Of a stretch of 64,000 bases of DNA, positions 5,825 to 50,340 are shown one piece after another. The notes below the pieces were generated by a model. The model saw only the letters and a list, made by a program, of their open reading frames with translations. It was not told the DNA's origin and ran no database searches. A program made the position numbers and the translations under genes. The DNA comes from an uncultured Spirochaetia bacterium (GTDB lineage Bacteria; Oederibacteriota; PGYV01), in contig CAYQIS010000002.1 of the NCBI GenBank assembly GCA_964417645.1, positions 130,583 through 194,582 of the forward strand, written 5' to 3'. The stretch's first letter is position 1. Every line of letters starts with the position of its first letter.

Positions 5825-5838
5825 ATAAGGGAGGATAA

Positions 5839-6867
5839 ATGAAAATTCTTGTCATTGGAGGCGCCGGTTTTATAGGCGCCAATGCCGCCGAAAGGTTTTT
5901 AAAAAGAGGGGACAAGGTTTTTGTTTTTGACAATCTTTCAAGACGCGGAACGGCCTGGAATATAAGCTGGCTTAAAAAATACAGGAATTTTTCTTTTGTT
6001 AAGGGAGATATAAGAAGGTATAAGGATATTTTGAAAATTTTTAAATCCAACAAAGATTTTGACGTTGTGCTTCATTTGGCCGCACAGGTTGCCGTTACAA
6101 CTTCTGTTGCAAATCCAAGAGAAGATTTTGAAATAAACGCTCTTGGCACTTTTAACGTTCTTGAAGCGATAAGGGAAACAAAATTAAACCCCGTAATAAT
6201 ATATTCTTCAACCAATAAAGTTTACGGAGGTATGACAGACATTAAGATAATTGAAAAGAACGGCCGATATGCTTATAAGGATTATCCTCGGGGAATAAGC
6301 GAAGACAGGATACTTGATTTTCATTCACCTTATGGATGCAGCAAAGGCGCTGCGGATCAGTATATGATTGATTATGCAAGAATATACGGCTTAAAGACCG
6401 TTGTTTTCAGGCAAAGCTGCATTTATGGTTACAGACAGTTTGGAATTGAGGATCAGGGATGGGTTGCCTGGTTTACAATAGCGACGATGCTTGACAAAAA
6501 CATAACAATATACGGAGACGGCAAACAGGTAAGAGATGTTTTGTTCATTGAAGACTTAATTGACGCTTACGAAGCCGCGATAAATAACATAGACAAGGCA
6601 AAGGGACAGGCGTTTAATATAGGGGGAGGAGCGGCAAATACAATGTCTCTTCTTGAATTGATTGCTTTTTTGGAAAAATTCTTCGGCAGGAAAATACCGC
6701 TTAAATTCGGAGACTGGAGGCCGGGAGATCAGCCTGTTTTTGTATGCGACATATCTAAAGCAAAACAGGTTCTTGGCTGGGAGCCGAAAATTTCACCCGA
6801 AGAAGGCGTGAAAAAGCTGTATGAATGGGTTAAGGACAACAAGAAACTTTTTGCTGATCTTGGCTGA
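5839..6867 (+). CDS. NAD-dependent sugar epimerase/dehydratase (CDP-paratose/tyvelose 2-epimerase-like)
   Basis: GGAGFIGAN Rossmann motif and YxxxK catalytic motif (YGCSKGAADQY), extended-SDR fold. Confidence 0.7.
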   Translation: MKILVIGGAGFIGANAAERFLKRGDKVFVFDNLSRRGTAWNISWLKKYRNFSFVKGDIRRYKDILKIFKSNKDFDVVLHLAAQVAVTTSVANPREDFEINALGTFNVLEAIRETKLNPVIIYSSTNKVYGGMTDIKIIEKNGRYAYKDYPRGISEDRILDFHSPYGCSKGAADQYMIDYARIYGLKTVVFRQSCIYGYRQFGIEDQGWVAWFTIATMLDKNITIYGDGKQVRDVLFIEDLIDAYEAAINNIDKAKGQAFNIGGGAANTMSLLELIAFLEKFFGRKIPLKFGDWRPGDQPVFVCDISKAKQVLGWEPKISPEEGVKKLYEWVKDNKKLFADLG

Positions 6868-24151: not shown

Positions 24152-24188
24152 GATTAACGTTTTAAATCGGAACTTCAAGCCTTAATTA

Positions 24189-27200: not shown

Positions 27201-28028
27201 ACGCCAAGCAATACTGTTACAGGCACCCAGCCCGCAACAAGCACTTTTACGTCCACACATACCGCAAGCTCAACTTATACCCATACAAGGACTTTTACCG
27301 AAACCCAAACTTACACCAATACATTTACTCCTGTATTCACGGATACCGTTACATTGACATTCACATCAACCAACACAGCAAGTTTTACATATACTCCAAG
27401 CAATACGGTTACGCCCGGCGGCCCGACTTTTACCCATACAAACACATTTACGAACACAAACACATTTACGCCAACTTTTACCGCCAGCAGCACATATACC
27501 GCGGCTTTTACCAACACTCCGTCTTATACAAGCACGCCTGTTCCGCCTACACTTACAAATACCGCAACATCCACACATACAAACACCTTTACCAATACAT
27601 TTACCCGGACTTACACTCAAACAGCTGTATTTACGGCAACCAATTCATTTACCCAAATGCCCACTCAGACATATACCAATACACCTGTGGTACAGCAAAG
27701 CAATGAGCAAAAGGCGGAAGTAAAACTGATATATCCGATGCCTTATGATCCGCTAAAAGGCAAACCTCTGTACATTCAATACATGGCAGGCAAAAGCCAT
27801 TCAGGCGTGCGTTTTATGGTTTATTCCTCAAGTTTCAGGCTTATCAGGGAAGTTATATTTGAAAGCAACCTTCCCCCAGGGTTAAATACACTTTCTGTTC
27901 TCCCTCAAAATTTTGAGGGGCTTGCAAACGGCACATATTATTATTTGTTAACTGTTGAAAATGACAATAACGAAAAATCACGGGCAAAAGTTGACAAACT
28001 TATAATTCTTAAAAGTAAAAAAGATTGA
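24246..28028 (+). CDS. secreted GH8 family glycoside hydrolase with two CBM-like modules, alternating-Thr linker and C-terminal sorting domain; interrupted by one in-frame TAG (24726-24728)
   Basis: GTG 24246 with RBS GGAAGGTG, then a signal peptide. GH8 motifs span the TAG (..GAATDADQDVV*ALIVADKQWG..). ORFs 24189-24728 and 24738-28028 are in the same frame. Two FDD(F/A)E...IYIDxIxF modules, a linker of about 270 aa, and a variant C-terminal domain (LIYPMPYD...FMVYSSSFRLIREV...GTYYYLL). Confidence 0.75.
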
Positions 28029-28053: not shown

Positions 28054-28082
28054 TTGCGTTAAAACGTTTTAAATGATATAAA
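28054..28082 (+). promoter_or_regulatory. sigma-70-like promoter of the lacI-GH30 operon with a perfect 14-bp palindrome TTAAAACGTTTTAA (28059-28072) and a second palindrome TAAACGTTTA (28089-28098)
   Basis: TTGCGT-17 nt-TATAAA. The palindrome spans the -35 3' end and the spacer. The AAAACGTTTT core matches the LacI/PurR-family operator archetype. Confidence 0.55.
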
Positions 28083-28115
28083 TTTAGGTAAACGTTTAAC
28101 TAAAAACGGGTGAAT

Positions 28116-29057
28116 ATGAAAAGAGCAACAATAAAAGATATAGCAAAAGCAGCCGGTGTTTCTTTTGTGACGGTATCAAAGGTTTTAAATAATACCGGGT
28201 CAATATCAAAAAAAACATCGGATAAAATAAGAAGACTGGCCAGGGAAATGAATTACATCCCTGATAATGCGGCGCGGGCGCTTGCAAAAGGAAGGCCTGA
28301 TTCAATTGCGATTGTCACGCCAAGTTTTACAACCGGCTTTATGCAGCAGCTTTTTATGGGCATTCAGGAAGAGATGCTGGGGTCTGACAAGGATGTTAAT
28401 TTTCATATTTCCGGAATGTCCGGCGAAGACATAGAAAAATCGCTGAATGTTATCAAGCACGGCAAAAAAGCGGGATCCATAATTGTTATTTCACAGCAGC
28501 CTGATGCGGCGCAGATTGACGGCTTGGTAAAAGCGGGAATACGCGTTGTGCTTGTTGAAGGCAAGCATCCAAAAGCCGTGATGATAAGCGCTGACAATGA
28601 AAACGGGGCAATACTTGCGGCAAGGCGTATGGTTGAAACAGGGGTAAAAAAACCGGGCCTTATTATAGGCGATGTAAAAATGATAAATTCACAGAAAGAA
28701 AGACTTGCGGGATTTAAAAAAATATTTGGAAATAAATTCAGCATTTATGAATTAAGGGAGCATTCATTTAATGACGGAATTAAAGCTTTCAGATATCTTT
28801 CGAATGAAGGTGTTGACTCTGTGTTCTGCGCGGCGGGAGACCTTGTTGCGTACGGTTTCTTATTTGAAGCCGGCAGATATAACAGCAGGATAAAGATAAT
28901 AGGTTTTGATGATGATCAGCTATCCGAAGGTATGGGGCTTACAACGGTAAAACAGGATGTCAAAGGAATGGGAGCGGCGGCATTTAGGGCGGCTGCAAAC
29001 GGTCCTGACTTCGGTGTAATAAATTTTAAAACAGAATTGATTGTAAGGAGGACATAA
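28116..29057 (+). CDS. LacI family transcriptional regulator
   Basis: N-terminal HTH MKRATIKDIAKAAGVSFVTVSKVLNN plus a periplasmic-binding-protein-type ligand domain. The stop directly abuts the ATG of the GH30 gene. Confidence 0.85.
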   Translation: MKRATIKDIAKAAGVSFVTVSKVLNNTGSISKKTSDKIRRLAREMNYIPDNAARALAKGRPDSIAIVTPSFTTGFMQQLFMGIQEEMLGSDKDVNFHISGMSGEDIEKSLNVIKHGKKAGSIIVISQQPDAAQIDGLVKAGIRVVLVEGKHPKAVMISADNENGAILAARRMVETGVKKPGLIIGDVKMINSQKERLAGFKKIFGNKFSIYELREHSFNDGIKAFRYLSNEGVDSVFCAAGDLVAYGFLFEAGRYNSRIKIIGFDDDQLSEGMGLTTVKQDVKGMGAAAFRAAANGPDFGVINFKTELIVRRT

Positions 29058-32021
29058 ATGATTAAAAAGATAACCGGATTTATTGTTCTTTTTGCCGCGT
29101 TTTTTTCCGCGGTATATGCCGCTGACTGCAATATATACGGGTTAACGGACAAGCAGTATATAAGGGGCTTTGGCGCCTCATCCGCATGGAGCGACTGGGG
29201 AGGAAATTCGGCGGGAAATACATGGCTTGTGTCACATGCCGATGAGTTTTTCACAACAACAAGCGGCATAGGGCTTACAATAATAAGGGCGAGGATAAAT
29301 CCCGTCCAAAGCGAATGGGGAAATACGGCTCCGCCTTTGCAGGCCGCACGTGACAGGGGCGCAACGGAAATATTTGCAACTGCCTGGACTCCTCCCGCGC
29401 AGTGGAAAAGCAATAATGCGGTTGACAACCAAAACGGAGGATACCTTCTGCCGCAGTATTATCAAAATTATGCAAATTATCTGAGGGATTATGTAATATA
29501 TATGAGGGATCAAAAACAGGTTAATATAACGGCAATATCACCCGCAAATGAACCTGATTACCGTGTAAGCTATGACGGATGCGACTGGACAGGCGAACAG
29601 CTGCGTGATTTTGTAAAAGGATATCTGGGGCCTACTTTTCAGGCCGCGGGGCTGACAACAAAAATAATTATAGGAGAATCTTTTGCGAATAATTGCGCTT
29701 ATGTAAACCCCACGGTGCTTGATTCCGTTGCAAGAGGTTTTCTTTTTGCCGGGGCCACGCATTTTTACGGGGGAGGACCTTATGACTGCCCAAATCTTGG
29801 TACTTACGGCAAGGAATTCTGGCAGACTGAAAAATCCAATTTCACAGCTTATGACGGCAGCATTACCCACGGCCTTATAACCGCCGAGTGGATTCACAGC
29901 GGGTTTGTGACCGGAAATTACAATGTTTTCCTTTATTGGTGGCTTGCTTCGGATCAGACAAACGAGGGTTTGACTTCGGTTACCCTTGGCACTCCAAAAA
30001 GATATTATACATTCGGAAACTTCAGTAAATTTGTAAGGCCCGGCTATTACAGAATAGACGCAACAGCGGCGCCCACAACAAATGTTTTGGTTACAGCCTA
30101 CAGGTCGGGGGACAGATCAAAATATGTGATTGTTGCAATAAACAAAAATACATCCGCGACTTCGCAAAAGTTTGTGTTAAACAACATTCCTGACGGAACA
30201 TACAATGTTTATGTCACATCTTCAACACAAAATCTTGCACAGGTTTCCAATATCAACGTAACGGGAGGCAGTTTTACATACAGCCTGCCCGCTCAAAGCG
30301 TTGTGTCTTTTGTGTCGCTTGGCGGGCCGACGCCAACGCCGACTTTCACGGTTACAGGAACGCCGCCTACCAATACTCCCACATCAACGGCAACCCCGCT
30401 TCCGGCGTCAATTTTATTTGATGATTTTGAGGATTTAAATTATAAAAATAACTTTAACGGCGACAATTACAAATATAACGGCAACAATTCAAATAATTTT
30501 GCAATGCAGTTTCTGCAGCCGGGCGCCGCATCAACCGGCAATTATATAAGGATTACGGGAACAGTTGCGGATTACGGCGGTTTTGGAATGAACTTTGCGG
30601 CTTCAGGAGCTGCTGATTTGTCCGCTTATCAGGGGATTGAATTCTATATTAAAGGAAGCGGAACATACTGGCTTCAGTTCACCCAGGATTCAATAACGGA
30701 TTATGACTATCATGGAATTGTTGTTACCGCCACATCAACTTGGACAAAAGTGACAGTTTTATTCAGCCAGCTTGCGCAGAAGAACGGCACAAATCCTGTT
30801 GCATTTACAAAAAACGCGCTTAATGCGGTGCAGTGGGCAAGCAACGGCAACGGCGCTTTTGACCTTCAGCTTGACGAAATAAGGCTTTTATACAACAGCA
30901 GCATAACGCCAACTTATACGAATACAATCCCTCCTCCGACAAACACCGCAACAAGGACGTTTACCAACACTTATACGGCAACATACACAAATACGCCGAC
31001 ATTTACCAATACGCCCGTACCCCCAACTTCAACAAATACAAGCACATATACGGCAACAGCAACAAACACCGCAACAAGGACATTTACCAATACCGCAACA
31101 AACACGCCGGTGCCTCCGACATCAACAAACACAAATACTTCCGTGCCTGCAACATCAACACACACCAACACTCAGGTTCCGCCGACTTTAACAAACACAA
31201 GTACAAACACATCGACGGCAACTTATACATACACGATAACTTATACGCCAAGCGAGACGGTTACAACAGGCGGACCCACGCTTACATTTACACAGACTTA
31301 TACAAATACGTATACGGCGACTCATACTGCCACAAACACTTATACAGATATCCCCACAAGCACGCCGACCAATGCGCCGCCGACATCAACTCACACCTCA
31401 ACAGCAACCGCAATTATTCCAACTTCAACAAACACAACCGTGTCTACAAGCACGTATACGCCTGTTAATACGGCAACATTTACACATACAAGCACGAACA
31501 CTTATACAAACACGCCCGTACCGCCGACTGCAACAAACACAGCGTCAAATACAAGCACGCGCACATACACTCAGACACCGACAAACACAATGACACGCAC
31601 GCCCACATATACATTTACCCAAACGTACACATACACGCACACGGAAACAATTGTTCCTTCGTTTACCAATACGCATACATTTACAGCAACAATAACGCCT
31701 ACTCCCACGCCGTCTGATGCAAAAGAGCAGGAGATAAAAGACATACTGCTGTATCCGCATCCGTATGATGCGGCAAAAGACAATTTAAAAATTATGTATA
31801 CAATAACAAAGAGGGCGCAGTCTGTTAAACTTTTGATATATTCATCGGCTTTCCGCCTGATACGCGAGGTTGAAATAGGCAGGGCGCTGTATGCAGGCAC
31901 GCATATCGGGGAGGTAAAGGCTTCACAGATAAGGCAGCTTGCAAACGGAACATATTATTTTGTGGTTAAGGATAATGAAGGCAAAAGGTCAAAAGCCGAT
32001 AAATTGATTGTCTTAAAATAA
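29058..32021 (+). CDS. secreted GH30 (subfamily 8-like glucuronoxylanase) with CBM-like module, alternating-Thr linker and C-terminal sorting domain
   Basis: Signal peptide. XynC-like motifs ([16 protein letters not shown] acid/base, FWQTE nucleophile). PT-linker, an FDDFEDL...LQLDEIRL module, about 265 aa of TxT repeats, and a C-terminal domain (ILLYPHPYD...[14 protein letters not shown]...GTYYFVV...KLIVLK). Confidence 0.75.
31240..32021 (+). repeat. 3' linker plus C-terminal-domain cassette, copy 1 (shared by five CAZyme genes)
   Basis: Roughly 650 bp are nearly identical at nucleotide level to 35770-36441. The cassette begins near the conserved island [16 protein letters not shown]. Confidence 0.8.
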
Positions 32022-32046
32022 CTTTTAACGTTTTAAATTCATTAAA

Positions 32047-36522: not shown

Positions 36523-39500
36523 ATGAAAAAATTAATTATAAGTTTTTTGTTTTTTTTGGCCGCTATCCCGCTTTTCGCGGTTAATATATCAATAAACGTA
36601 AACCAGGAGCGCGCGCCGATATCGCCGCATATTTACGGCGCGAATATAGCCGGTGACCCTGAAGACCCGACACAGTATCAGCTTGCGGATGCTGTTAACT
36701 GGGCGTCGCGCAGGCAGGGCGGAAACCGTTTCACGGCATACAACTGGGAAAATAACGCCAGCAATGCCGGCGCTGATTACGGGCCTAACAGTTCAGACCC
36801 GTATCTTTGCATGGCATACGGGGTTACGAATTGTGACATTCCGGGTGAAGTGCTTACACGTTTTCATAATCAATGCCTGGCGCGCGGGCAAAGCGACCTT
36901 GTGACGCTGCAGATGGCAGGTTTTGCGGCTGCTGATAAAATATGGAATAACGGCGACCCGGGTGTTGCAACCGCAGACCTTACAACTGACAGGTGGAAGA
37001 CGGTTGTATATAAAAAACCGGGCGGACCTGCAAGCTTTGTAACCAATCCAAATACAACCGATGAATATGTTTATATGGATGAATATGTGAACTGGATGAA
37101 GAACAAGTTCGGGGGCGCAAACAGTCCCAACGGCATAAAAATGATATCATTGGACAATGAACCCACACTTTGGGCAACAACACACCCCAGAGTGCATCCC
37201 ACCCCCGTGACATACCTTGAACTAAAAAATAAAAGCATACAGCTTGCAACCGCGATAAAGGATGTTGACCCTGATGTGCTGATATTTGGCGCCGCTGATT
37301 TTGGCTGGTCCGCATTTATGAACTTAAACAATGCAACCGACAGAACAACCGAAGGCGCGGGGTACAGCTGGTTTATAGATTATTACCTTGATAAATTCAG
37401 GGCGGCTTCTTTGGCTTACGGCCGCAGGCTGCTTGATGTTTTGGATATTCATTGGTATCCTGAAGACAATGGAAATTCCTGCCGAATAGTATACACGGAA
37501 TATGACAGCGACTGCCCGAATAAAACAGACCCGTCAATAAATGCCGATGCGCGCATGCAGGCCCCCAGAACACTGTGGGACAGCACTTATAATCAGTCTT
37601 CCTGGATACCAAATCCCGTGAGATTAATTCCAAGACTTCAGAGTTCAATAGACGCTTATTATCCCGGAACAAAAATTGCAATAACAGAATATGATTTTGG
37701 AGGCGGAACTCATTTTTCGGGAGGTATTGCACAAGCGGATGCGCTTGGCGTATTTGGAAAATACGGCGTGTTTGCCGCATATTACTGGGATATTGCGCCG
37801 GGCCCGTACACGATTGCCGGTGTAAAATTATACAGGAACTATGACGGCGCAAAACACACATACGGCGACACAAAAGTAAAAGCTGACACGGATGATGTGG
37901 CCTCCATGCCCGTATATGCCTCGCAGTTTAACGGTGATGACAGCAAGCTTCATATAATAGTGATTAACAGAAGTTCCTCCGCCAAGCCGGCAAACATAAC
38001 AATTACAGGCCCTTATGCTTTTGATTCTGGCAGCGTTTGGGGTTTTGATTCAACCAGCTATACCATAACGGCAAGGGCGGGAATTACATCAATTACAGGA
38101 AATGCTTTTACCTATAATGTGCCTGCTTATACCGCGCTTCATATGGTTCTTAATTCTTCAATGATTACGCCCACATATACGAATACAGTAAATCCTTTAT
38201 TTACACACACCTTCACTCCAACCTCTACCAATACTCCGGAACCCGGGTTTATTTTTGATGACTTTGAAGACTTGAATTATAAAAACAATTTAAACGGGGA
38301 CAATTACAAATATAACGGCGCCAATTCAAATAATTTTGCAATGCAGTTTCTGCAGCCGGGCGCGGCATCAACAGGCAATTACATAAGAATTACCGGAACA
38401 GTTGCGGATTACGGCGGTTTTGGAATGAACTTTGCGCCATCAGGCGCTGCTGATTTGTCCGCTTATCAGGGGATTGAATTCTACATTAAAGGAAGCGGAA
38501 CATATTGGCTTCAGTTTACCCAGGATTCAATCACCGATTATGATTATTATGGAACGGTTGTGACGGCGACATCAACATGGACAAAAGTGACTGTTTTATT
38601 CAGCCAGCTTGCGCAAAAAAACGGCACAAATCCTGTTGCATTCACGAAGAACGCGCTTAACGCGGTTCAGTGGGCAAGCAACGGTAACGGCACATTTGAC
38701 ATAGCATTGGATGAAATTAAATTAATGCCGGTGATTGCAAGCACCCCCACATATACACATACCCTTACATACACTCAGACTGCAACCAATACGGCAACTT
38801 TTACGAATACCGCGACCCGTACAAATACAGCTGTTAATACAGCAACGAACACATATACAAATACATACACTTCCACATACACATTAACGCATACGGCCAC
38901 ATACACAAATACATTAACGGCAACATATACTTACACGGTTACCCATACCCCCAGCGAAACAGTCACAACAGGCGGACCCACACTTACATTTACCCATACA
39001 TTTACAAACACTTATACAAGCACAAGCACGTATACCGCGACACATACAGCTACAAGCACTGCGACAAATGTTCCTCCCTCTTCAACAAATACAAGCGTTT
39101 TTACAAGCACGCACACCCCTGTTAATATGGCAACATTTACACATACAGGCACAAACACTTATACAAACACGCCGGTTCCGCCGACTGCAACAAGTACAGC
39201 GTCAAATACAAGCACGCGCACATACACTCAGACACCGACAAACACAATGACACGAACGCCCACGCATACATTTACCAATACGTATACATACACGCACACG
39301 GAAACCGTAGTTCCTTCGTCTACCAACACGTATACATTTACGGCAACAATAACGCCTACTCCTACGCCGTCTGACGCAAAAGAGCAGGAGATAAAAGACA
39401 TACTGCTGTATCCGCACCCGTATGACGCAAAGAACGGGAATTTAAAGATAAAGTACACGATAACAAAAAGGGCGCAGTCAGTAAAGCTTTTGATATATTC

Positions 39501-39678
39501 ATCGGCGTTCCGATTGATACGCGAGGTTGAAATAGGCATGGAGCTGCATGCGGGGACGCATATCGGGGAAGTAAAGTCCTCGCAGATAAAAACGCTTGCG
39601 AACGGAACATATTATTTTGTGGTTAAGGACAGCGAAGGAACAAGGTCAAAAGCGGATAAAATAATAGTATTGAAATGA
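36523..39678 (+). CDS. secreted GH44 family glycoside hydrolase (endoglucanase/xyloglucanase type) with CBM-like module, alternating-Thr linker and C-terminal sorting domain
   Basis: GH44 hallmarks ([95 protein letters not shown]). An FDDFEDL module about 90% identical in DNA to the one in the GH30 gene. Confidence 0.8.
38245..38735 (+). repeat. CBM-like module DNA repeat (paralogous copy of 30411-30900)
   Basis: About 490 bp at roughly 90% nucleotide identity between the GH30 and GH44 genes. Encodes [12 protein letters not shown]...[28 protein letters not shown]... Confidence 0.75.
38935..39678 (+). repeat. 3' linker plus C-terminal-domain cassette, copy 3
   Basis: Shares the [16 protein letters not shown] island and a C-terminal domain at roughly 85-90% DNA identity to the other copies. 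Confidence 0.7.
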
Positions 39679-39707: not shown

Positions 39708-39736
39708 TTGACAATATAAAATTTTCTGTGTATATT
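39708..39736 (+). promoter_or_regulatory. sigma-70-like promoter of the GH5 gene
   Basis: TTGACA-17 nt-TATATT about 40 nt upstream of ATG 39776 (RBS GGAGA). Confidence 0.55.
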
Positions 39737-39775
39737 TATGCAAACGATTGTTTAAAATATTACATGGAGAATTTT

Positions 39776-42688
39776 ATGATAAAACAAACTACTAAAGCAT
39801 TTTCGTTAAAAATTTTTAACTTTTTTTGTATTTCCATACTTTTATTATCAACTAATCTTTTTGCAGATATGATTTATGACGGGGATACGGCAGGATATCG
39901 GCTGTCGGACGGAACGGTAATAAACGGCTCGCCGGGCACCATGACCGAAACAACAGGCGGAAATCCCGGAAATCTTATGCGTCTTACATACACTTCCATA
40001 TCAAGCTGGTGGCAGGAACACAGGTGGGATAAAACAGTTAATATACCGTTTGGAGCAAACACTCATTTAAGATTCAATGTAAGACGCGCTCCCACAAGTC
40101 CGGGCACTGTAAGCGTTTTTCGTGTAAGAATAGATTACAACGGAAATTATGTTGATGTTGCAAATTATCTTTTGGAAGGCGGTTCAATTGACTCCACTTG
40201 GAAAACAGCCAATATACCTTTGGCTGATATAAAAGGCCCATCTCAGACACAGATAGATTTCATTAATTTTATAGCAAACTGGAATTCTGATTACACTGTT
40301 GATATTGATAACATTTCAATTGAAGGCGCTTATACTCCCACATATACATATACCGTAAACCCTTTGTTTACGGCAACATACACTCCAACCCCCGCGCCAA
40401 CGTCTGCAGGCATGCCGCGCATATCAATCAACGGCACGGAATTCAGGGCATGCGGCCAGAGAATCTGGATGTGCGGCGCCAACACGCCGTGGGATAATTG
40501 GAATGATTTTGGCGGGAATTATGACCCTGACTTTTGGAACACTCATTACGCTCAATTTAATGCTTACGGGCTTAATTCCTCACGCGTCTGGATAACCTGT
40601 TCGGGCGAAGTGGGAATCAACATAGATACAGCAGGATATGTATCAGGCGCAACCGCCGCGCACTGGGCGAACCTGGATGATTTTTTTGCAAAAGCCCAGG
40701 CAAAAGGCGTTTACATTAAAGCAACCCTTATTTCATTTGACCATTTTAAAAGTTCGTATACAACATATCAGCGCTGGAGAAACTGGATAAATTCCGACGC
40801 CAATATTGATTCTTACATAAACAATTATCTTATTCCTTTTGTTAACAGGTACAAGAACAATACCGCCCTTTGGTGCATTGACATGACAAATGAACCCGAG
40901 TGGGCAACAACATCGGAAGGCGGAACAATAACATGGGACAGGTTCCAGAAATTCTGGGCAAAGGCCGCAAAGGCAATACATGATAACAGCGAAATACTTG
41001 TAACAGTTGGAATTGGTGTAATTAAATATAACAGCGACAATCCGGGAATGAACGGCAATAAGGTAAGCGATGCGGCCCTTCAGGCGCAGCTTAATGATCC
41101 AAAGGCAAAACTGGATTTTTATTCGCCCCATTGGTATTCGTGGATGGATCCTTACTGGACTATATTGATGTATACAACGCCTTCTTCTTTTGGAATAGGG
41201 ACAAAGCCGTGTATTGTGGGCGAAGCGCCGGGAACAGCTTCAACAGGGCACACGCTTGCCCAGGATTATGAAGCGGCTTATACCAACGGCTGGCAGGGTT
41301 TTATGCCGTGGACTTCAAACGGTGTTGACAATTTTGGCAACTGGAGCAATGTTTCGCCGGCTTCCAATTCTTTTAAAAACAATCACTATAATCTTGTGTT
41401 CCCGCCATGCTCAACATCAACCCCCACAAATACAGGAACATATACAAAAACAAGCACTCCTGTGCCGCCAACGGCAACCAACACTTCAACCAATACAAAC
41501 ACTGCAACATTTACTTTTACGGCAACAGGCACAAATACTGCTGTTCCCACAAATACAAGCACTCGTACAAACACCAACACCGCAACATACACTTATACTG
41601 CAACATTAACTCCTGTGAATACAAACACCTTAACCGCGACAAATACAGCTGTGCCTTCCACATACACTTTTACCGCCACAAATACCGCCACGTCAACCGC
41701 AACCCACACGGCGGTTAACACAAGCACCAATACAAGTGTTCCTTCGGCAACGTTTACCAATACTTCAATAAATACGCCGGTAAACACCGCAACAGGCACT
41801 TTTACAAGCACATACACTTTCACATACACATTAACGCATACTTCAACACACACAAACACATCAACGGCAAATTATACTTACACGGTTACCTATACCCCCA
41901 GCGAAACAGTCACAACGGGCGGGCCAACGCTTACATTTACGCACACATTTACGCAGACTTATACAAGCACAAGCACATATACGGCAGCATCAACTGCAAC
42001 AAGCACTTATACAAATGTTCCCACAGACACAGCAACCAATATTCCCGCAACATCAACATACACCTCAACAGCAACCGCAATTATTCCAACTTCAACAAAC
42101 ACAAGCGTGTTCACAAATACGCATACGCCTGTTAATACGGCAACATTTACACATACAGGCACAAACACTTATACAAACACGCCGGTGCCGCCGACAGCAA
42201 CAAGTACAGCGTCAAATACAAGCACGCGCACATACACGCATACGCTGACAAACACAATGACACGAACACCTACGCATACATTTACCAATACGTATACATA
42301 CACGCACACGGAAACCGCAGTTCCTTCGTTTGCCAATACTTATACATTTACAGCAACAATAACGCCTACTCCGACGCCGTCTGATTCAAAAGAGCAGGAA
42401 ATAAAGGACATATTGCTGTATCCGAACCCGTATGATGCAAAGAACGGGAATTTAAAGATAAAGTACACGATAACAAAAAGGGCGCAGACAGTTAAGCTTT
42501 TGATATATTCATCGGCGTTTCGCCTGATACGCGAGATTGAAATAGGCAGGGAAATGCATGCGGGAACGCGTATCGGAGAAGTAAAGGCTTCACAGATAAA
42601 AACGCTTGCAAACGGAACATATTATTTTGTTATTACGGAAAGCGAAGGAAAAAGGTCAAAAGCGGATGAAATAATAATATTAAAATAA
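39776..42688 (+). CDS. secreted GH5 family glycoside hydrolase (clan GH-A, mannanase/glucanase-like) with N-terminal CBM-like module, about 330-aa alternating-Thr linker and C-terminal sorting domain
   Basis: Signal peptide from ATG 39776. Beta-sandwich module, then a TIM-barrel region with a NEPEW acid/base motif and a ...GEAPG nucleophile region. Long TxT linker and C-terminal domain. Confidence 0.7.
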   Translation: MIKQTTKAFSLKIFNFFCISILLLSTNLFADMIYDGDTAGYRLSDGTVINGSPGTMTETTGGNPGNLMRLTYTSISSWWQEHRWDKTVNIPFGANTHLRFNVRRAPTSPGTVSVFRVRIDYNGNYVDVANYLLEGGSIDSTWKTANIPLADIKGPSQTQIDFINFIANWNSDYTVDIDNISIEGAYTPTYTYTVNPLFTATYTPTPAPTSAGMPRISINGTEFRACGQRIWMCGANTPWDNWNDFGGNYDPDFWNTHYAQFNAYGLNSSRVWITCSGEVGINIDTAGYVSGATAAHWANLDDFFAKAQAKGVYIKATLISFDHFKSSYTTYQRWRNWINSDANIDSYINNYLIPFVNRYKNNTALWCIDMTNEPEWATTSEGGTITWDRFQKFWAKAAKAIHDNSEILVTVGIGVIKYNSDNPGMNGNKVSDAALQAQLNDPKAKLDFYSPHWYSWMDPYWTILMYTTPSSFGIGTKPCIVGEAPGTASTGHTLAQDYEAAYTNGWQGFMPWTSNGVDNFGNWSNVSPASNSFKNNHYNLVFPPCSTSTPTNTGTYTKTSTPVPPTATNTSTNTNTATFTFTATGTNTAVPTNTSTRTNTNTATYTYTATLTPVNTNTLTATNTAVPSTYTFTATNTATSTATHTAVNTSTNTSVPSATFTNTSINTPVNTATGTFTSTYTFTYTLTHTSTHTNTSTANYTYTVTYTPSETVTTGGPTLTFTHTFTQTYTSTSTYTAASTATSTYTNVPTDTATNIPATSTYTSTATAIIPTSTNTSVFTNTHTPVNTATFTHTGTNTYTNTPVPPTATSTASNTSTRTYTHTLTNTMTRTPTHTFTNTYTYTHTETAVPSFANTYTFTATITPTPTPSDSKEQEIKDILLYPNPYDAKNGNLKIKYTITKRAQTVKLLIYSSAFRLIREIEIGREMHAGTRIGEVKASQIKTLANGTYYFVITESEGKRSKADEIIILK
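41690..42688 (+). repeat. 3' linker plus C-terminal-domain cassette, copy 4 (extended about 1 kb of similarity with 48497-49432)
   Basis: Near-identical stretches, e.g. AACCCACACGGCGGTTAACACAAGCACCAATACAAGTGTTCCTTCGGCAACGTTTAC, are shared with the beta-helix gene. Confidence 0.7.
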
Positions 42689-42751: not shown

Positions 42752-43780
42752 TTGAAGCCGACCACAATAAAAGACATAGCAAGAAGACTTGATCTTAGTT
42801 TTACGACGGTATCAAGGGCCCTTAATAATGACATCAAAATTAAGCTTTCAACAAGGGAATTGGTAAAGAAAACGGCCGAAGAAATGAATTATTTCCCGAA
42901 TATGGCGGCCAGGGGTCTTGTAAGACGAAAATCCGAAACAATAGCGTTTATGAGCACCCGTTTTGCCGCACCTTTTATTTCAAATGTACTTGATGCTTTT
43001 GAACAAAAAGCATTTTATACCGGAAGATATGTGCACGGGATTATTCCTTATTCAACAAGAAACGAGGAAGCTGTTAAAGAAATGCTTTTAAAGCGCATTT
43101 TAAGGGGAAGGATGGCGGATGCTCTTGTTATGCTGTCGCAAAGACCTTCGGAAAAAATATTGGAAGAGTTTAACATGGCCGGAGTTCCTGTTTTGTTGAT
43201 AGAAAATAGAATGCCCGGCGCACACTCCATAACCGTTGACAATGCCCACGGAGCGCGCTCCGCCGCGCAGTATCTTGTAAAAACCGGAAGAAAAAGAATA
43301 TGCCTGATAACCGGTGAAATAATACAGCCGCCAAGCAGGGATATAAACACGGCGGCCGTTGAAAGAAAAGAAGCTTTTGTGTCCGAGGTGCTTGAAAGCG
43401 GAATATTTTTTAATGAAAGCAACATAGAAACAATACATGCATATAAATATGAAGAAGGCATGACAGCTTTGGATAATTTTATAAAAAAAGGAATAAAACC
43501 TGACGCAATATTCTGCGCGGCGGGTGACATTGTTGCAATGGGAGTGCTGGAGCGTGCAAGAGAAAAAGGAATAAGCATTCCCGAAGACATGGCAATTATA
43601 GGATATGACGATATACTTTCAGCCAAAAATCTTAATCCTCCACTTACAACCATAAGACAGCCTCTTCATGAAATCGGGGAAATGGCTTTTGAGATGATTC
43701 TTGATGCGGTGGACGGAAAATTAAAAGAGACAAAAAATGTGGTAATTAAACCGGAATTAATAATACGCAAATCCGCGTGA
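42752..43780 (+). CDS. LacI family transcriptional regulator
   Basis: HTH (TIKDIARRLDLSFTTVSRALNN) plus a type-I PBP ligand-binding domain. Confidence 0.85.
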   Translation: MKPTTIKDIARRLDLSFTTVSRALNNDIKIKLSTRELVKKTAEEMNYFPNMAARGLVRRKSETIAFMSTRFAAPFISNVLDAFEQKAFYTGRYVHGIIPYSTRNEEAVKEMLLKRILRGRMADALVMLSQRPSEKILEEFNMAGVPVLLIENRMPGAHSITVDNAHGARSAAQYLVKTGRKRICLITGEIIQPPSRDINTAAVERKEAFVSEVLESGIFFNESNIETIHAYKYEEGMTALDNFIKKGIKPDAIFCAAGDIVAMGVLERAREKGISIPEDMAIIGYDDILSAKNLNPPLTTIRQPLHEIGEMAFEMILDAVDGKLKETKNVVIKPELIIRKSA

Positions 43781-43781
43781 A

Positions 43782-44210
43782 ATGATGAATTTCGAAAAAG
43801 AATTTGACATATGGAAAAACAGATATTTTCAAAATTTTTGCATAAATAAATGTTCTGACACATGCTGCAATATGAGCAGTTTCTCGCTGCATTTAACGGA
43901 GAAAGAACTTATAAAAATGCTCGGGGAAAAAAAGGAAAAAGCGGAACTTAAAGCAATGGGGATAAAGCATGACGGGGGCGCTTATTTTTTCGACAATGCG
44001 GGCTTCTGCCCGAAGTTTGATCAAAAAACACGGATGTGTTTGTCTTATGAAAGCAGGCCGAACAGCTGCAGGGAATACCCTTTTATTGTTGAACCTGACG
44101 CGATTATTATTAAGAAGGGATGCTCTCTTGCAAAGGGGTACGTTGAATATCAAAAACTTTCAGAGCTTGGGTTGCGGCACGGAAAAGTTATAGTTAAAAA
44201 AGACAGATAA
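43782..44210 (+). CDS. YkgJ-family Cys-cluster protein (putative Zn/Fe-chelating CxxxCxxxCC domain, PF03692-like)
   Basis: FCINKCSDTCCN...C..F......CLSYESRPNSCREYPF pattern. Confidence 0.55.
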   Translation: MMNFEKEFDIWKNRYFQNFCINKCSDTCCNMSSFSLHLTEKELIKMLGEKKEKAELKAMGIKHDGGAYFFDNAGFCPKFDQKTRMCLSYESRPNSCREYPFIVEPDAIIIKKGCSLAKGYVEYQKLSELGLRHGKVIVKKDR

Positions 44211-44299
44211 AAATTTTCAAACACAACCTTACAAAATACTTCCAATTGACATTATTAAAAATTAATTTTATAATTGTTAAAGGATATAAGGAGGCTGTG

Positions 44300-45169
44300 A
44301 TGAGCGAAATAGACCACAGAAACGCCACAATTGCATTTGTCAGCCCGCGATTTACATCCCCTTTTATGATAGAAATCCTTACGGCCGCCGAGGAAGAAGC
44401 ATATAAAAGCGAGAGATTCCGCGGGGGAATTCTTCCTTTTTCAACATGGAACATAGACAGCGAACGCGACAGGATACTTCATTCCCTGATTGATGAAAAA
44501 AAAGCAGACGCAATTGTATTGATAACCACATGGCCTGTTCCGGGTTTTGTTGAAGCGTGCGCGCAAAAAAATATTCCTTTGATTGTGGTTGAATACAGCA
44601 TAAACGGTGTTTTTTCGATAATGAATGACAATTTTACGGGCGGATATATCGCCGGCGAATATCTTTCGCAAAAATATGGCGAGGATACAGTTATAGTAAA
44701 CGGCCTTACATCGCATGAAAAAGGCAAGGACATACATCCGGCGGCAATTGACCGTCTTAAAGGTTTTAAGGTGGCTTTTTCCAATTTTGGATTCCAGCCT
44801 GAATCAATAAAAAACATAAATGTGCTTGCATATACAAGGCAGGAAGGTTCTGAGATAATGCGCAGTCTTGCCCGTGAAACAAAGATGCCCCGTTCGGTGT
44901 TTTGCGCGGCGGGAGATGAAACGGCAATAGGCATAATTGAAGCCGCATTAAAGCTTGGATTAAAAGTTCCTGAAGATATTGCAATAATGGGCTATGACGA
45001 CATAGAAGCCGCCGGTTTGATGAAACCGGGATTAACCACAATAAGGCAGCCGCTTGCGGAAATAGGAAGGATTGCATTTGAAGCGGCTTCGAAAATGGCG
45101 GACGGGGAATCTGTTGAAAAGGGGGTTGTTACTGTAAAACCTGAACTTATAGTGCGAGAATCAGCATAA
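44300..45169 (+). CDS. LacI-type ligand-binding-domain protein lacking the N-terminal HTH (HTH-less LacI paralog)
   Basis: Clear homology to the sugar-binding core of the 42752 regulator (IAFVSPRFTSPFM.. versus IAFMSTRFAAPFI..; shared C-terminal YDDI..A and TTIRQPL motifs). Begins at ATG 44300 with RBS AAGGAGG. No signal peptide and no HTH. Confidence 0.75.
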   Translation: MSEIDHRNATIAFVSPRFTSPFMIEILTAAEEEAYKSERFRGGILPFSTWNIDSERDRILHSLIDEKKADAIVLITTWPVPGFVEACAQKNIPLIVVEYSINGVFSIMNDNFTGGYIAGEYLSQKYGEDTVIVNGLTSHEKGKDIHPAAIDRLKGFKVAFSNFGFQPESIKNINVLAYTRQEGSEIMRSLARETKMPRSVFCAAGDETAIGIIEAALKLGLKVPEDIAIMGYDDIEAAGLMKPGLTTIRQPLAEIGRIAFEAASKMADGESVEKGVVTVKPELIVRESA

Positions 45170-45180
45170 CTTATATAAAC

Positions 45181-45215
45181 AAAAAGCCCGTCCTTTCAAG
45201 GACGGGCTTTTTGTT
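45181..45215. terminator. bidirectional intrinsic terminator
   Basis: AAAAAGCCCGTCC-TTTCAA-GGACGGGCTTTTTGTTTTTTT, lying between convergent genes. Confidence 0.8.
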
Positions 45216-45224
45216 TTTTTGCCG

Positions 45225-46207: not shown

Positions 46208-49200
46208 GTGAGAAAAAACATTTATTTTATTTTTGTTTTCTTACAATTTTTTTATTCCTTAATATACGGCTGGGAATCACAGCTTTTTCCTTTTAATTCG
46301 GTAACAGGAAAATATCAGGAAGCTGTTGTGAATTTTAACGGAAGAAACTGGAAGCTTCTTGATTACTCATACACAGGATATAATCTTGGAAATACGGGTT
46401 TAAGAAAAAACATACCCTGCAATATACAGACAATTACGGGTTCAGGAGACATAACAGCTGAACTTCAGACAAAAATTGACGCGGTTGGCGCGGCAGGAGG
46501 GGGAATAGTAAGGATACCTGCAGGAACATTTACGATAACAGAGCACACTCTTCACGGCGGATTAAAGCCAATCGGCATTAATTATCCAAATGTATCAATA
46601 GAAGGGGCCGGAAGCGGCAGGACAATAATAAATGTTCCGCCAACCCACACTTACAGCAGCGATGCAAACGCTTTTGAAGGCGTGTTTACTTTTGAAAAAT
46701 CAAGATGGGCGTGGAACAAGGGCTGGGTTGACAGGGGAACCGTGCTTTCCGGAATTACCCAGCCGATAGCTGAAGGGGCAACGTATTTGACCGGTGTCAC
46801 CAATCTTGCGGGTATAGCGGTTAATGACTGGATAATTATATAGCAGTACTGGTGGCAGACTTTTTCCCAGCAGAATTCTGCCGGAGTGTGGCAGTATTAT
46901 CCGCCCAACACAAACAGGGAAACAAATTTTGTGTATTTAAGAAAAGTAATTGCAAAGGACGCTGGCGGAATAACGATTGACGCGCCTATCCCTTTTTACC
47001 TTGACCCCGCAAACAATCCCATAACAATAAGAAGAAGCGGCCCCGATACCACATCTTATCAGATGCTTGAAAATGTGGGCATATCGGGGCTGACCATACA
47101 GTTTCAGGACGTAAATATAGGAGCAACAGGCAGGCCGGAAGGCGCGGGTATTGTTATGGAAGGCGTTGTGAACGGCTGGGTGTATGACGTTCATGTAAAA
47201 AACTTTCCGCGATACGGTTTTTATTTTGAATATGACGCGCGTCTTTCTTTTGTAAATTGCGTGGCCAAAAAAACCCAGGATTACGGGGGGGACGGTTACG
47301 GATACGGTTATCATAATTATGCATCGCAGAATGTCCTGATAAAAAACTGTTATGCCGAAGACGTAAGGCACGCTTATATATTCCAAAAGCCCCTTGCCAA
47401 TTACTGCGCCGTTGTTGATTCCGATTCAATTGACTGCCGCCAGGGAGAAGACACGCATCATTCTTTCTGCCATGCCATTTTGCGGGACAATGTGCGCCAC
47501 AGCCACGGCAACAAGATGGTTGGTTATAACAGGGGAACAACCAGCACAAATGCTTACGAAACTTACGGTACGGGAGTAAATTGGAATGTGACGGGTGACG
47601 GCATTGGGGGTGTGTGGGAAAGCGCGATTTTCTCAATGAATCCTGCGCCGTATCCCGCTCTTTACACGCACGGAATCATGGTCGGGGGGCCGGGTTTATA
47701 CAGGGTGTTTGACAACGGTTCTCACATAAGCGGAACCTATGTTGAAGGCGATCAGATTTTTCCGTCCCCCGGATTTCAGGTTGGGATTAGTGGGGATAAA
47801 AATATGCTGTATGAAGGGCTGGGACAAACAGGCCTTATGCCTTACTCGCTTTATAACACACAGCTTTCAAACAGGCTGGGTACGGTTCCTGCCGTATGGG
47901 ACAATACCTGCGGCGATGCGCCCGCATTGCCTGCGGCAACACCGACCCCTGCTTTGTCAGGAGAACTAATATTTGACAGCGAATACGCTGCATGGGGTTT
48001 CAGCTTCGGAAGCTCCTGCCCGCTGCCTTTAAACACACTGACACCGGGCACCAATCCCGATGATATGGGGCAGGTTCACAGCGGTATTGAGGCAATGCGT
48101 GTTGATGTAAGCGCGGGAAGCAACTGGACGCCCATGTTCGTGTTCGGGGGGCCGGACCTTAAGGCAACGGATTTTACAAATATAGAGTTTTGGATATATC
48201 CAACAAACACAGCCATGCAGTGTTATGTAAATTTGATGGATGATGATGCGGGAACATCGCTTGGAAGCACGGTTACATTAAGCGGCAGCTATGCCCAGGG
48301 AGGCGCTTTTATTGCCAATACATGGAATAAAGTTACCATACCTCTTACCGCATTTGCTTATTCAGGCACATTCAGCGGAATCCGTTTTTCGCGAACGGGC
48401 ACAGCGCCGGGAACTTTTTATCTTGACGATATGTATCTTACAGGGGGCGCACCAACCGCCACACCCACAAACACAAGCACCCAGACCGCAACAAATACCG
48501 CAACCCACACGGCGGTTAACACAAGCACCAATACAAGTGTTCCTTCGGCAACGTTTACGAATACTTCAACAAATACACCCGCAAACACCGCAACAGGCAC
48601 TTTTACAAACACATACACTTCCACATACACATTAACGCATACGTCAACACACACAAACACATCAACGGCAACATATACTTACACGGTTACCCATACCCCC
48701 AGCGAAACAGTCACAACGGGCGGGCCAACGCTTACTTTCACGTACACATTTACAAACACTTATACAAGCACAAGCACGCATACTGCAACATCAACATACA
48801 CCTCAACAGCAACCGCAATTATTCCAACTTCAACAAATACAAGCGTGTTTACAAGCACGCACACCCCTGTTAATACGGCAACATACACACATACAAGCAC
48901 AAATACTTATACAAATACGCCCGTGCCGCCGACTGCAACAAATACCGCGTCAAATACAAGCACGCGCACATACACGCAAACAACGACAAACACAATGACA
49001 CGCACGCCCACATATACAGTCACAAATACGTATACATACACGCACACGGAAACCGCAGTTCCTTCGTTTGCCAATACTTATACATTTACAGCAACAATAA
49101 CGCCTACCCCGATAACGCCTGATACAAAAGAGCAGGAAATAAAGGATATATTACTGTATCCGAATCCTTATGACGGTAAGAACCAAAATTTAAAGGTAAG

Positions 49201-49432
49201 TTACACAATAACAAAGAGTGCAACATCAATAAGGTTCAGGATATATTCATCGGCGTTCAGATTGATACAGGAAACTGAAATAGGCAGGGCATTGCATGCA
49301 GGGATACATACGGGAGAAGTGAATGCATCACAGCTTAAGCTTCTTGCAAATGGAACATATTACTTTGTAATTACGGACAATGAAGGTGCAAGGTCTAAGG
49401 CGGACAAATTTATTATAATTAAATTTCACTAA
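46208..49432 (+). CDS. secreted right-handed beta-helix protein (pectate-lyase-superfamily / GH28-GH55-like) with CBM-like module, alternating-Thr linker and C-terminal sorting domain; interrupted by one in-frame TAG (46841-46843)
   Basis: N-terminal [35 protein letters not shown] is the signature opening of Pectate_lyase_3-type beta-helix enzymes. ORFs 46208-46843 and 46886-49432 are in the same frame. [11 protein letters not shown]...[10 protein letters not shown] module, TxT linker and C-terminal domain follow. Confidence 0.7.
48497..49432 (+). repeat. 3' linker plus C-terminal-domain cassette, copy 5
   Basis: See copy 4. The C-terminal domain here is more diverged (..[18 protein letters not shown]..). 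Confidence 0.7.
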
Positions 49433-49494
49433 ACTTGATTATCCTTCTTTTTGCTGATATATTTTATTTTAGGAGATTGTAAAGGGGGATAATA

Positions 49495-50340
49495 ATGAAG
49501 TTTAAAGATGAAAACCGTAAAATTACGCCCGGAAGAATAGCCGTAATAAAACCAACCATAAATTCCATATACGAAATGAGTCTTGTCAGCGCCGTTGAAT
49601 CGCATTTATCGGATATTGGGGCAAATCTTGCGGTTTTAACCGCGGAAAATGACAATGTTAAGGTTGTGGAAACAATTATGGACGTTATAAAAACGGGCTG
49701 GGCAGGCGCGATTATTACAGTGAATGTCAAGCCGCAGGAAATAATTTCAAGGCATTGTGAAGCTGCAAGGATTCCTCTTGTTATGATAGACGGAGGAGAG
49801 GCTGTATACACAAACACCATAAATATAGATGATTATCACAGCGGTTTTACCGCTGTGGATTATTTGATAAAAAGCGGCAGAAAAAAAATTGTGGTTACAT
49901 CAGGAGACCCGAAACACGGCTACTCACAGGAAATGCGGCTTCTTGGATGCAGGCAGGCTTTTTATGAAAATCAGGTTTCTGAAAGCAGATATTCTTTTTT
50001 GAATTATTTTCTTTATTCAAGGGAAGACGGCATAGCCGCATTTGGGGATATAATAAAAGAAAAACCTGACGCTGTTTTTTGCGCAAACGGCGACAATTTT
50101 GCAATAGGTTTTATGGAAGAAGCAATGGAAAACAGGGTGTCAATACCGGATAATATAGCTGTTGTGGGACATGATGACATAGGTCTCTCCGGTGTGCTTG
50201 GGCTTACAACAATGCGCCAGCCTGTAGGGCTGATGGGGGAAAGGGCTGTTGAAATAATAGCGGATATAATTAACGAGAAAACAAAAACTCCTGTGTCTGA
50301 AGTGTTTAAGGCTGACCTGATAAAAAGGCAAAGCGCCTGA
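49495..50340 (+). CDS. second HTH-less LacI-type ligand-binding-domain protein
   Basis: Type-I PBP / LacI sugar-binding core with conserved ..VVGHDDI..TTMRQP.. C-terminal motifs. No HTH and no signal peptide. Confidence 0.7.
   Translation: MKFKDENRKITPGRIAVIKPTINSIYEMSLVSAVESHLSDIGANLAVLTAENDNVKVVETIMDVIKTGWAGAIITVNVKPQEIISRHCEAARIPLVMIDGGEAVYTNTINIDDYHSGFTAVDYLIKSGRKKIVVTSGDPKHGYSQEMRLLGCRQAFYENQVSESRYSFLNYFLYSREDGIAAFGDIIKEKPDAVFCANGDNFAIGFMEEAMENRVSIPDNIAVVGHDDIGLSGVLGLTTMRQPVGLMGERAVEIIADIINEKTKTPVSEVFKADLIKRQSA

Follow-up and report, generated by a model that had tools for sequence, protein, structure and literature searches.

The 64,000-nucleotide stretch of contig CAYQIS010000002.1 analysed here (the window) comes from an uncultured, Goldbacteria-type bacterium and carries, within an array of secreted carbohydrate-active enzyme (CAZyme) genes, two genes that we call A' and B'. 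Each encodes the sugar-binding regulatory core of the LacI/GalR family without the helix-turn-helix (HTH) DNA-binding head and the hinge helix, and such proteins are termed headless below. Two full-length regulators of the family, LacI-A and LacI-B, are encoded in the same window:

28110..29057, + strand: LacI-B, full-length regulator and proposed relative of B' (315 residues; PF00356 HTH plus core)
42752..43780, + strand: LacI-A, full-length regulator and candidate partner of A' (342 residues; PF00356 HTH plus core)
44300..45169, + strand: A', LacI/GalR regulatory core, no HTH or hinge (289 residues; Pfam Peripla_BP_1/3/4 only)
49495..50340, + strand: B', LacI/GalR regulatory core, no HTH or hinge (281 residues; Pfam Peripla_BP_1/3/4 only)

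The absence of the HTH from A' and B' is supported by three analyses that agree. Pfam identified PF00356 in LacI-A and LacI-B and in neither A' nor B'. When the four proteins are aligned, A' and B' start 9-14 residues ahead of the first beta-strand of the core; they thus lack both the HTH and the hinge/linker segment (Y-x-P-N-x-x-A-x-x-L), which lies upstream of that start. A hidden Markov model (HMM) of the LacI HTH, built from 99 LacI N-termini of full-length relatives and run unfiltered (--max) on the whole 64 kb translated in six frames, detected the two known HTHs only (E 1e-24 to 1e-25), with all other segments at E>1, and hence no upstream, frameshifted or stand-alone LacI-type HTH in any frame of the window; on five related loci the same model found nothing past the known full-length genes. 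Neither protein has a signal peptide, as the N-termini are hydrophilic (maximum 12-residue hydropathy 1.0-1.2, versus 2.7 in the neighbouring GH30 protein), nor a lipobox, there being no cysteine in the first 40 residues of either. Because the HTH and the hinge helix are wholly absent at the gene level, A' and B' cannot be operator-binding repressors on their own, and operator binding by them is expected to be absent.

Both genes are retained in a related (sister) genome, represented by the Joint Genome Institute (JGI) metagenome contigs L001-L004, in the same order and with the same lengths (289 and 281 residues), at amino-acid identities of 90% (A') and 78% (B'). The ratios of non-synonymous to synonymous substitution (dN/dS; Nei-Gojobori, versus L001) were 0.037 for A', 0.073 for B', 0.044 for LacI-A and 0.051 for the SulP transporter gene, at a dS of ~1.9, a level at which synonymous sites are near saturation. 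Judged by these ratios and by the expression signals that follow, both A' and B' are intact and subject to purifying selection, and each is transcribed from a sigma-70 promoter of its own:

44246..44274, + strand: A' promoter, TTGACA-17 nt-TATAAT, a consensus match of 12/12
44288..44294, + strand: A' Shine-Dalgarno AAGGAGG, 5 nt 5' of the ATG at 44300 (read from the sequence; kept in L001)
45177..45216, + strand: A' intrinsic terminator, an 18-bp stem followed by a T run (folding free energy -28.8 kcal/mol, z = -8.9)
49435..49463, + strand: B' promoter, TTGATT-17 nt-TATATT (TTGATA-17-TATATT in L001)
49484-49489, + strand: B' Shine-Dalgarno GGGGGA (also kept in L001)

The gap upstream of A' is 89 bp (44211-44299) and that upstream of B' is 62 bp. 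The promoter hexamers, their spacing and the Shine-Dalgarno site of A' are kept in the L001 orthologue despite a different upstream gene there, and A' would be monocistronic because of the strong intrinsic terminator 3' of it; by these flanks A' behaves as a putative mobile promoter-gene-terminator module. An alternative start for A' at TTG 44246, the mechanical start of the open reading frame, was rejected, as this triplet belongs to the -35 hexamer of the conserved promoter. Conservation extends over ~75 bp 5' of A' (window 44211-44299 versus L001 9928-10000), where the upstream gene differs and synonymous sites of the coding regions are near saturation, and this stretch holds a block, TTACAAAATA-N5-CAATTGACA, that overlaps the -35 box and could be a candidate binding site. 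The preliminary description of the locus had reported that both open reading frames start directly at the ligand domain with good ribosome-binding sites, lack an HTH and a signal peptide, show no HTH-encoding sequence upstream and sit within the CAZyme array (here GH30, RGL11+PL1, GH44 and beta-helix genes), and the present results bear it out on each of these points.

In their profiles and fold A' and B' resemble repressors. Pfam core-domain E-values were 2.7e-25 (A') and 2.6e-18 (B'), and the best NCBIfam matches were to PurR (1e-32) and RbsR (1e-31 to 1e-37), with weaker matches to RbsB (E 7e-14 for A') and YtfQ; NCBIfam holds no dedicated model for headless cores. The AlphaFold2 model of A' had a predicted local distance difference test score of 93.9 and a predicted template-modelling (TM) score of 0.91, and its best fold matches in the PDB (Foldseek, TM-score ~0.8) were the cores of PurR, RbsR and CcpA and a reconstructed LacI ancestor. 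The C-terminal end (...ELIVRESA) is repressor-like. Pocket and interface positions were mapped from the LacI sequence and a list of residues that we take to be those forming the LacI pocket and interface. By this mapping the equivalents of LacI R197, D274, Q291 and the aromatic residue 220 (W220 as Tyr) are kept in both A' and B', F at LacI position 75 and an acidic residue at 149 are also retained, and the effector pocket looks intact. The pockets of A' and LacI-A differ at six lining positions (e.g., 161 V->N and 248 I->E).

These data allow two simple explanations of A' and B' to be weighed. If the genes were decaying remnants, they would be 5'-truncated pseudogenes or regulators with a frameshifted or upstream HTH, and local decay or sequence error does exist, as two CAZyme genes of the window carry an in-frame TAG. 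Such decay is hard to reconcile with dN/dS of 0.04-0.07 at dS ~1.9, identical lengths in the sister genome, headless orthologues down to 46-52% identity, conserved promoters and Shine-Dalgarno sites, the lack of any HTH remnant in any frame and upstream gaps of only 89 and 62 bp; we consider it highly improbable, and the dN/dS and conservation data refute it in practice. Equally improbable is a role of A' and B' as ordinary solute-binding proteins exported to serve a sugar ABC transporter, as might be proposed from the shared type-I periplasmic-binding-protein fold and the weak RbsB and YtfQ matches. The N-terminus of each starts at the core and has neither signal peptide nor lipobox, the profiles of the repressors PurR and RbsR match far better, the C-terminal end is repressor-like, and no ABC permease or ATPase genes adjoin A' or B'; the lack of an export signal and the repressor-type profile refute this explanation in practice as well. 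A' and B' are genuine cytoplasmic LacI cores, neither decayed regulators nor solute-binding proteins. They share with the LacI/GalR repressors (PurR, RbsR, CcpA, LacI) the core fold (the 'tryptic core' of LacI), the Pfam core, the pocket residues and the C-terminus, and differ from them in lacking the PF00356 HTH and the hinge helix. By fold and descent they belong with the LacI/GalR regulatory domain, and to class them as LacI transcription factors would be a mistake. In public records headless cores are labelled "LacI family DNA-binding transcriptional regulator" or "substrate-binding domain-containing protein", and the label of DNA-binding transcriptional regulator is wrong for them and inflates regulon predictions.

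The relationships of the headless cores were examined by neighbour joining on core-domain sequences, and a subset of 60 taxa was bootstrapped 100 times. Headless proteins formed three separate clades, and all of them together were monophyletic in 0/100 bootstraps. Clade (i) comprises A', P0001, P0002 and P0004 together with the full-length P0003 (bootstrap 100/100, with the branching among the five unresolved) and nests in a cluster of full-length Goldbacteria LacI proteins. Clade (ii) consists of B' (identical to P0121) and P0122-P0125 (100/100) from Candidatus Goldbacteria/Goldiibacteriota, all of them headless, 281-286 residues long and down to 46% identical. Clade (iii) contains widespread proteins of 275-279 residues from many lineages (bootstrap 99/100). 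The tree indicates more than one origin of headless cores from full-length LacI genes, and one ancestor shared by the A' lineage and its full-length P0003-type sister. Among full-length proteins A' is nearest to P0003 (50% identity), A' and LacI-A being 36% identical, and B' is 27-29% identical to LacI-B, LacI-A and A' alike; the pairing of B' with LacI-B had a bootstrap of 29/100, and the B' clade is without a specific full-length sister. The preliminary description had called A' and B' closely related to the regulators at 42752 and 28116, respectively, a view that these identities do not sustain, B' being no closer to LacI-B than to other LacI proteins.

Headless LacI cores are a recurrent architecture and not peculiar to the window. 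Of the best 150 matches of a clade (iii) profile to a set of 1.84 billion representatives at 50% identity, ~45, counted by hand, were <=300 residues long and started at the core. Such proteins fall into three or more clades and into dozens of clusters at 50% identity, and are not as rare as had been implied. A profile search aimed at the A'/P0003 clade yielded no further members of it. A scan of genome contigs with the A'-clade alignment gave 11 loci, all of which were full-length LacIs (FCPU426, Spirochaetia, Chlorobiales) with no Goldbacteria among them, and a scan of metagenome contigs with this alignment gave no match.

Genomic context was surveyed on the contigs that encode the protein relatives found, and the context statistics come from about a dozen loci. 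The following features are referred to below:

43782..44210, + strand (window): CxxCxxCC (YkgJ-type) Zn/Fe-binding protein gene between LacI-A and A' (PF03692)
L001 10948-12038, L003 7183-7995 and L004 1059-1871: HAMP-domain gene and small open reading frame region
L034 5572-6846 and L036/L037 5662-6846: HTH_17 gene and headless core, followed by a pectate-lyase-superfamily gene

Members of the A' clade are linked to a LacI-A orthologue, at a distance of up to about 5 kb, at every locus examined (the window, L001 and L021). In the window A' starts 520 bp past the end of LacI-A, with the CxxCxxCC gene, which has an equivalent place after the LacI genes in L001-L003, as the sole intervening gene; in L001-L003 two LacI genes lie <=5.5 kb upstream of the A' orthologue. 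The tightest arrangement is that of L021/L022, in which the headless P0004 gene ends 1 nt before the full-length P0003 gene (TAA-C-ATG), whose product is 49% identical to P0004, and a LacI-A-like gene follows. A second, independent pair occurs in L035, from a Spirochaetia metagenome-assembled genome (MAG), where a 282-residue headless gene, preceded by an in-frame stop and equipped with a -10 box of its own, is followed after 154 bp by a full-length LacI gene (41% identity) with a perfect CG-centred palindromic operator (predicted). In P0231 a LacI HTH and two cores are joined in one chain. The coupled pair, the L035 tandem and the P0231 fusion indicate that headless cores arise by local LacI duplication and that some remain coupled to, or fused with, the full-length gene.

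Other two-core chains were encountered: P0250 (core+core, no HTH), P0248 (core+core followed by a GerE/LuxR-type HTH, by Pfam), P0278 (core+core after an N-terminal segment that we read from its sequence as GntR-like and that Pfam did not call) and P0252/P0274, also listed among the two-core proteins. These chains, P0231 included, may alternatively have originated by read-through in gene calling. In L016 two 275-residue headless cores, P0082 and P0083, are encoded in tandem (5059-5886 and 6001-6828), 114 bp apart and beside carbamoyl-phosphate synthase genes of a MAG; they may form a headless heterodimer. One member of the 90%-identity cluster of P0083 carries the name Bacteroidota. In the P0174/P0176 lineage a 64-residue HTH_17 (PF12728) gene lies 145-235 bp upstream of a 281-residue headless core in two divergent genomes, and this pair may be a split regulator with a different DNA-binding module.

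The explanation that we favour, while placing it somewhat below an even chance, is that A' is a sugar-sensing anti-repressor that acts through mixed dimers with a full-length LacI paralogue; we propose the same for B' with less assurance. The cores of A' and B' would keep the monomer-monomer interface of the family and would act via protein contacts rather than on DNA. A' would pair with the LacI paralogue of its own cluster, which would be LacI-A in the window and the P0003-type sister in the relatives. Such a mixed dimer would have a single HTH and hinge and would be inactive, because LacI-family proteins need two HTH/hinge units to clamp the operator. The effect of A' would thus be that of the trans-dominant lacI(-d) mutants of Escherichia coli, arrived at naturally, and its anti-repression would add a second sugar input to the control of the CAZyme genes. 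B', the weaker part of the proposal, would follow the same principle. The linkage of the A' clade to LacI genes, the P0004-P0003 coupling, the L035 tandem and the P0231 fusion give circumstantial support to heterodimer formation or titration of this kind. At the interface strand of the N-subdomain (LacI 94-100), P0003 and every member of the A' clade have I-x-P-F-S-T-W and LacI-A has IIPYSTR, and the equivalent of LacI Y282 is hydrophobic in the A' clade, P0003 and LacI-A; these features fit a retained competence for dimerisation that would be compatible with the sister protein.

A number of observations weigh against mixed dimers. The interface features would equally fit shared ancestry and a constraint for homodimers. 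A' and LacI-A share only 36% identity, and the P0003-type gene is not in the window, nor was an orthologue of it present among the protein matches attributable to this genome. B' has no identifiable full-length partner, being 27-29% identical to all full-length LacIs, and no LacI gene lies within about 10-20 kb of B' or its orthologues (window, L001, L010). The clade (iii) genes have housekeeping or two-component-system contexts with no LacI neighbours, from which it follows that headless cores can have partner-independent or non-LacI roles, and in the P0174/P0176 lineage it is the HTH_17 gene, not a LacI gene, that consistently precedes the headless core. In addition, an operator search of the window found no LacI-type operator at the A' promoter, which has a perfect consensus and is apparently unregulated, or at the B' promoter. 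Because of this consensus promoter without an operator, A' would be constitutively abundant and would permanently disable its partner, unless the mixing of dimers depends on ligand.

A' and B' may instead be autonomous cytoplasmic sugar-binding homodimers that make no contact with a LacI protein, serving either as a buffer that sequesters inducer and sets the threshold of induction or as AmiC-like sensors that signal to a non-LacI partner. We regard this as possible, and nearly as likely as the mixed-dimer explanation. The pocket residues are intact in A' and B', the very strong and apparently unregulated A' promoter suits an abundant binding protein, B' and the 275-residue clade are without a LacI neighbour, the A' pocket differs from that of LacI-A at six lining positions, and a HAMP-domain gene follows the A' orthologues in L001-L004. 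However, no candidate partner is conserved at these loci, as the HAMP gene is not in the window and the neighbours vary by lineage, and translational coupling to or fusion with full-length paralogues is left unexplained; we also know of no precedent for LacI-type cores as buffers. A third arrangement would be a split regulator, in which a small DNA-binding protein, made from a gene of its own, associates with the headless core through non-covalent contacts and the two bind DNA together. It is suggested by the HTH_17 gene conserved 5' of the headless core in two divergent genomes of the P0174/P0176 lineage and by the related cores fused to a GerE-type HTH in P0248 (Pfam) and, as we read the sequence, to a GntR-like segment in P0278. 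For A' and B' themselves we think a split regulator of this type improbable, since no small HTH gene adjoins either of them and the six-frame HMM search found no stand-alone LacI-type HTH in the 64 kb.

The closest parallel to the anti-repressor explanation comes from classical genetics. The lacI(-d) mutants of E. coli LacI have a working oligomerisation core and no functional DNA-binding head, and are trans-dominant as they poison mixed oligomers. They are laboratory alleles of the same gene, with 100% identity in the core, whereas proteins of the A' type are separately encoded, ancient paralogues of 36-49% identity whose mixed dimers are hypothetical. A second type of parallel is AmiC, a cytoplasmic sensor of amides with the periplasmic-binding-protein fold that sequesters the antiterminator AmiR. 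AmiC shares with A' and B' the type-I periplasmic-binding fold, the cytoplasmic location without a signal peptide and the lack of a DNA-binding domain, and, as A' and B' are proposed to do, it senses a ligand and acts by contact with another protein; it differs in that it belongs to the LivJ-like branch and A' and B' to the LacI branch. No AmiR/ANTAR-like partner gene is present among the immediate neighbours of A' and B' in the window and L001.

Natural examples are known from other regulator families. Among LuxR-type proteins, TraR is antagonised by TrlR and CerM by CerN, both of them headless paralogues, and in TrlR/TraR, CerN/CerM and FleT/FleQ a truncated paralogue encoded near a full-length regulator inactivates that regulator by heteromer formation (PMC11655674). 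As in A' and B', the ligand and oligomerisation domain has been kept in TrlR, CerN and FleT and the DNA-binding domain lost. Their position near the regulator is matched by A', which lies 520 bp from LacI-A, but not by B'. The identity of CerN and CerM is only 31% (PMC11655674), comparable to the 36% of A' and LacI-A. The families differ, TrlR and CerN being LuxR-type and the FleT partner FleQ NtrC-type, whereas A' and B' are of the LacI family. In full-text searches of the literature we found no functional study of a LacI-family protein without a DNA-binding domain, and the Goldbacteria single-cell paper does not discuss regulators. The existence of headless LacI proteins is not new, as they are visible in databases; their role and the coupled pairs appear to be undescribed.

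LacI/GalR proteins are textbook one-component sugar switches that are heavily used in synthetic biology, and the natural variation known among them concerns operator and ligand specificity, not architecture. A selected and independently expressed headless core suggests an unrecognised layer of control on polysaccharide-degradation genes, be it anti-repression, ligand buffering or a new partner, and this argument is strongest for the cores that are coupled to or fused with a full-length sister. It is conceivable, if doubtful, that LacI cores without a DNA-binding domain are in general recurrent, naturally evolved 'subunit-poisoning' anti-repressors, the bacterial equivalent of plant microProteins, produced by tandem LacI duplication and loss of the head. 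If that were true, sugar regulons would gain a second ligand input, the repressor responding to one oligosaccharide and the anti-repressor to another. Snapshots of this class would then be seen in the coupled P0004-P0003 genes, the tandem of the Spirochaetia MAG and the HTH-core-core fusion, and A' and B' would represent it among the CAZyme genes of a Goldbacteria genome. Natural regulation of the I(-d) type becomes directly testable through the signal of selection, the independent origins of headless cores and the existence of pairs that are coupled or fused, and the tandem pairs P0004/P0003 and P0178 with its neighbour are test material for a hypothesis that dates to lacI(-d) genetics.

The surroundings of the two genes differ between genomes. 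In the window A' and its terminator are followed by a porin-like gene (Gcw_chp) in the opposite orientation, and in the sister genome by the HAMP-domain gene (189-270 residues) and an 84-residue open reading frame directly 3' of the A' orthologue, neither of which is in the window. The order around B' is CAZyme - B' - SulP in the window and L001 and RluA-like - B'-like - GH3 in another Goldbacteria MAG. The secreted CAZymes around A' and B' in the window are GH30+CBM11, RGL11+PL1, GH44+CBM11 and a beta-helix protein, and the neighbours of A' and B' are the CxxCxxCC protein gene, the porin-like gene, the beta-helix CAZyme gene and the SulP gene.

The large CAZyme open reading frames (24738-28028, 29058-32021, 36523-39678, 39728-42688 and 46886-49432) all have long Thr/Asn/Pro-rich low-complexity C-terminal linkers (..TNTATYTYT..), followed by a conserved C-terminal module of ~90 residues (..NGTYYFVI..) that is presumably a cell-surface or sorting domain. 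Over long stretches the linkers are near-identical between genes, and numerous spurious open reading frames lie across them on either strand. A single in-frame TAG breaks each of two large secreted genes of CAZyme type (24726-24728 and 46841-46843). The TAG at 46841 joins the same-frame open reading frames 46208-46843 and 46886-49432, and the L001 orthologue has Gln at this position (DWIVIQQYWWQ versus DWIII*QYWWQ). The TAG at 24726 occurs in the context ..ATDADQDVV*ALIVADKQWG.., which we take to resemble a GH8-type motif, in a gene that probably starts at GTG 24246 with a signal peptide. TAG is the terminal codon of 7/40 long open reading frames, and the in-frame TAGs could reflect nonsense mutation, sequence error or TAG read-through.

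LacI-B, the RGL11/PL1 gene and the GH8-like gene are preceded by AT-rich, CG-centred palindromes that resemble LacI operators, at 28059-28072 (TTAAAACGTTTTAA, perfect), 28087-28100 (GGTAAACGTTTAAC), 32023-32036 (TTTTAACGTTTTAA) and 24154-24167 (TTAACGTTTTAAAT). Their count taken alone is not above chance (4 found versus 1.8 expected), and these palindromes are likely the signature of a LacI-B regulon.

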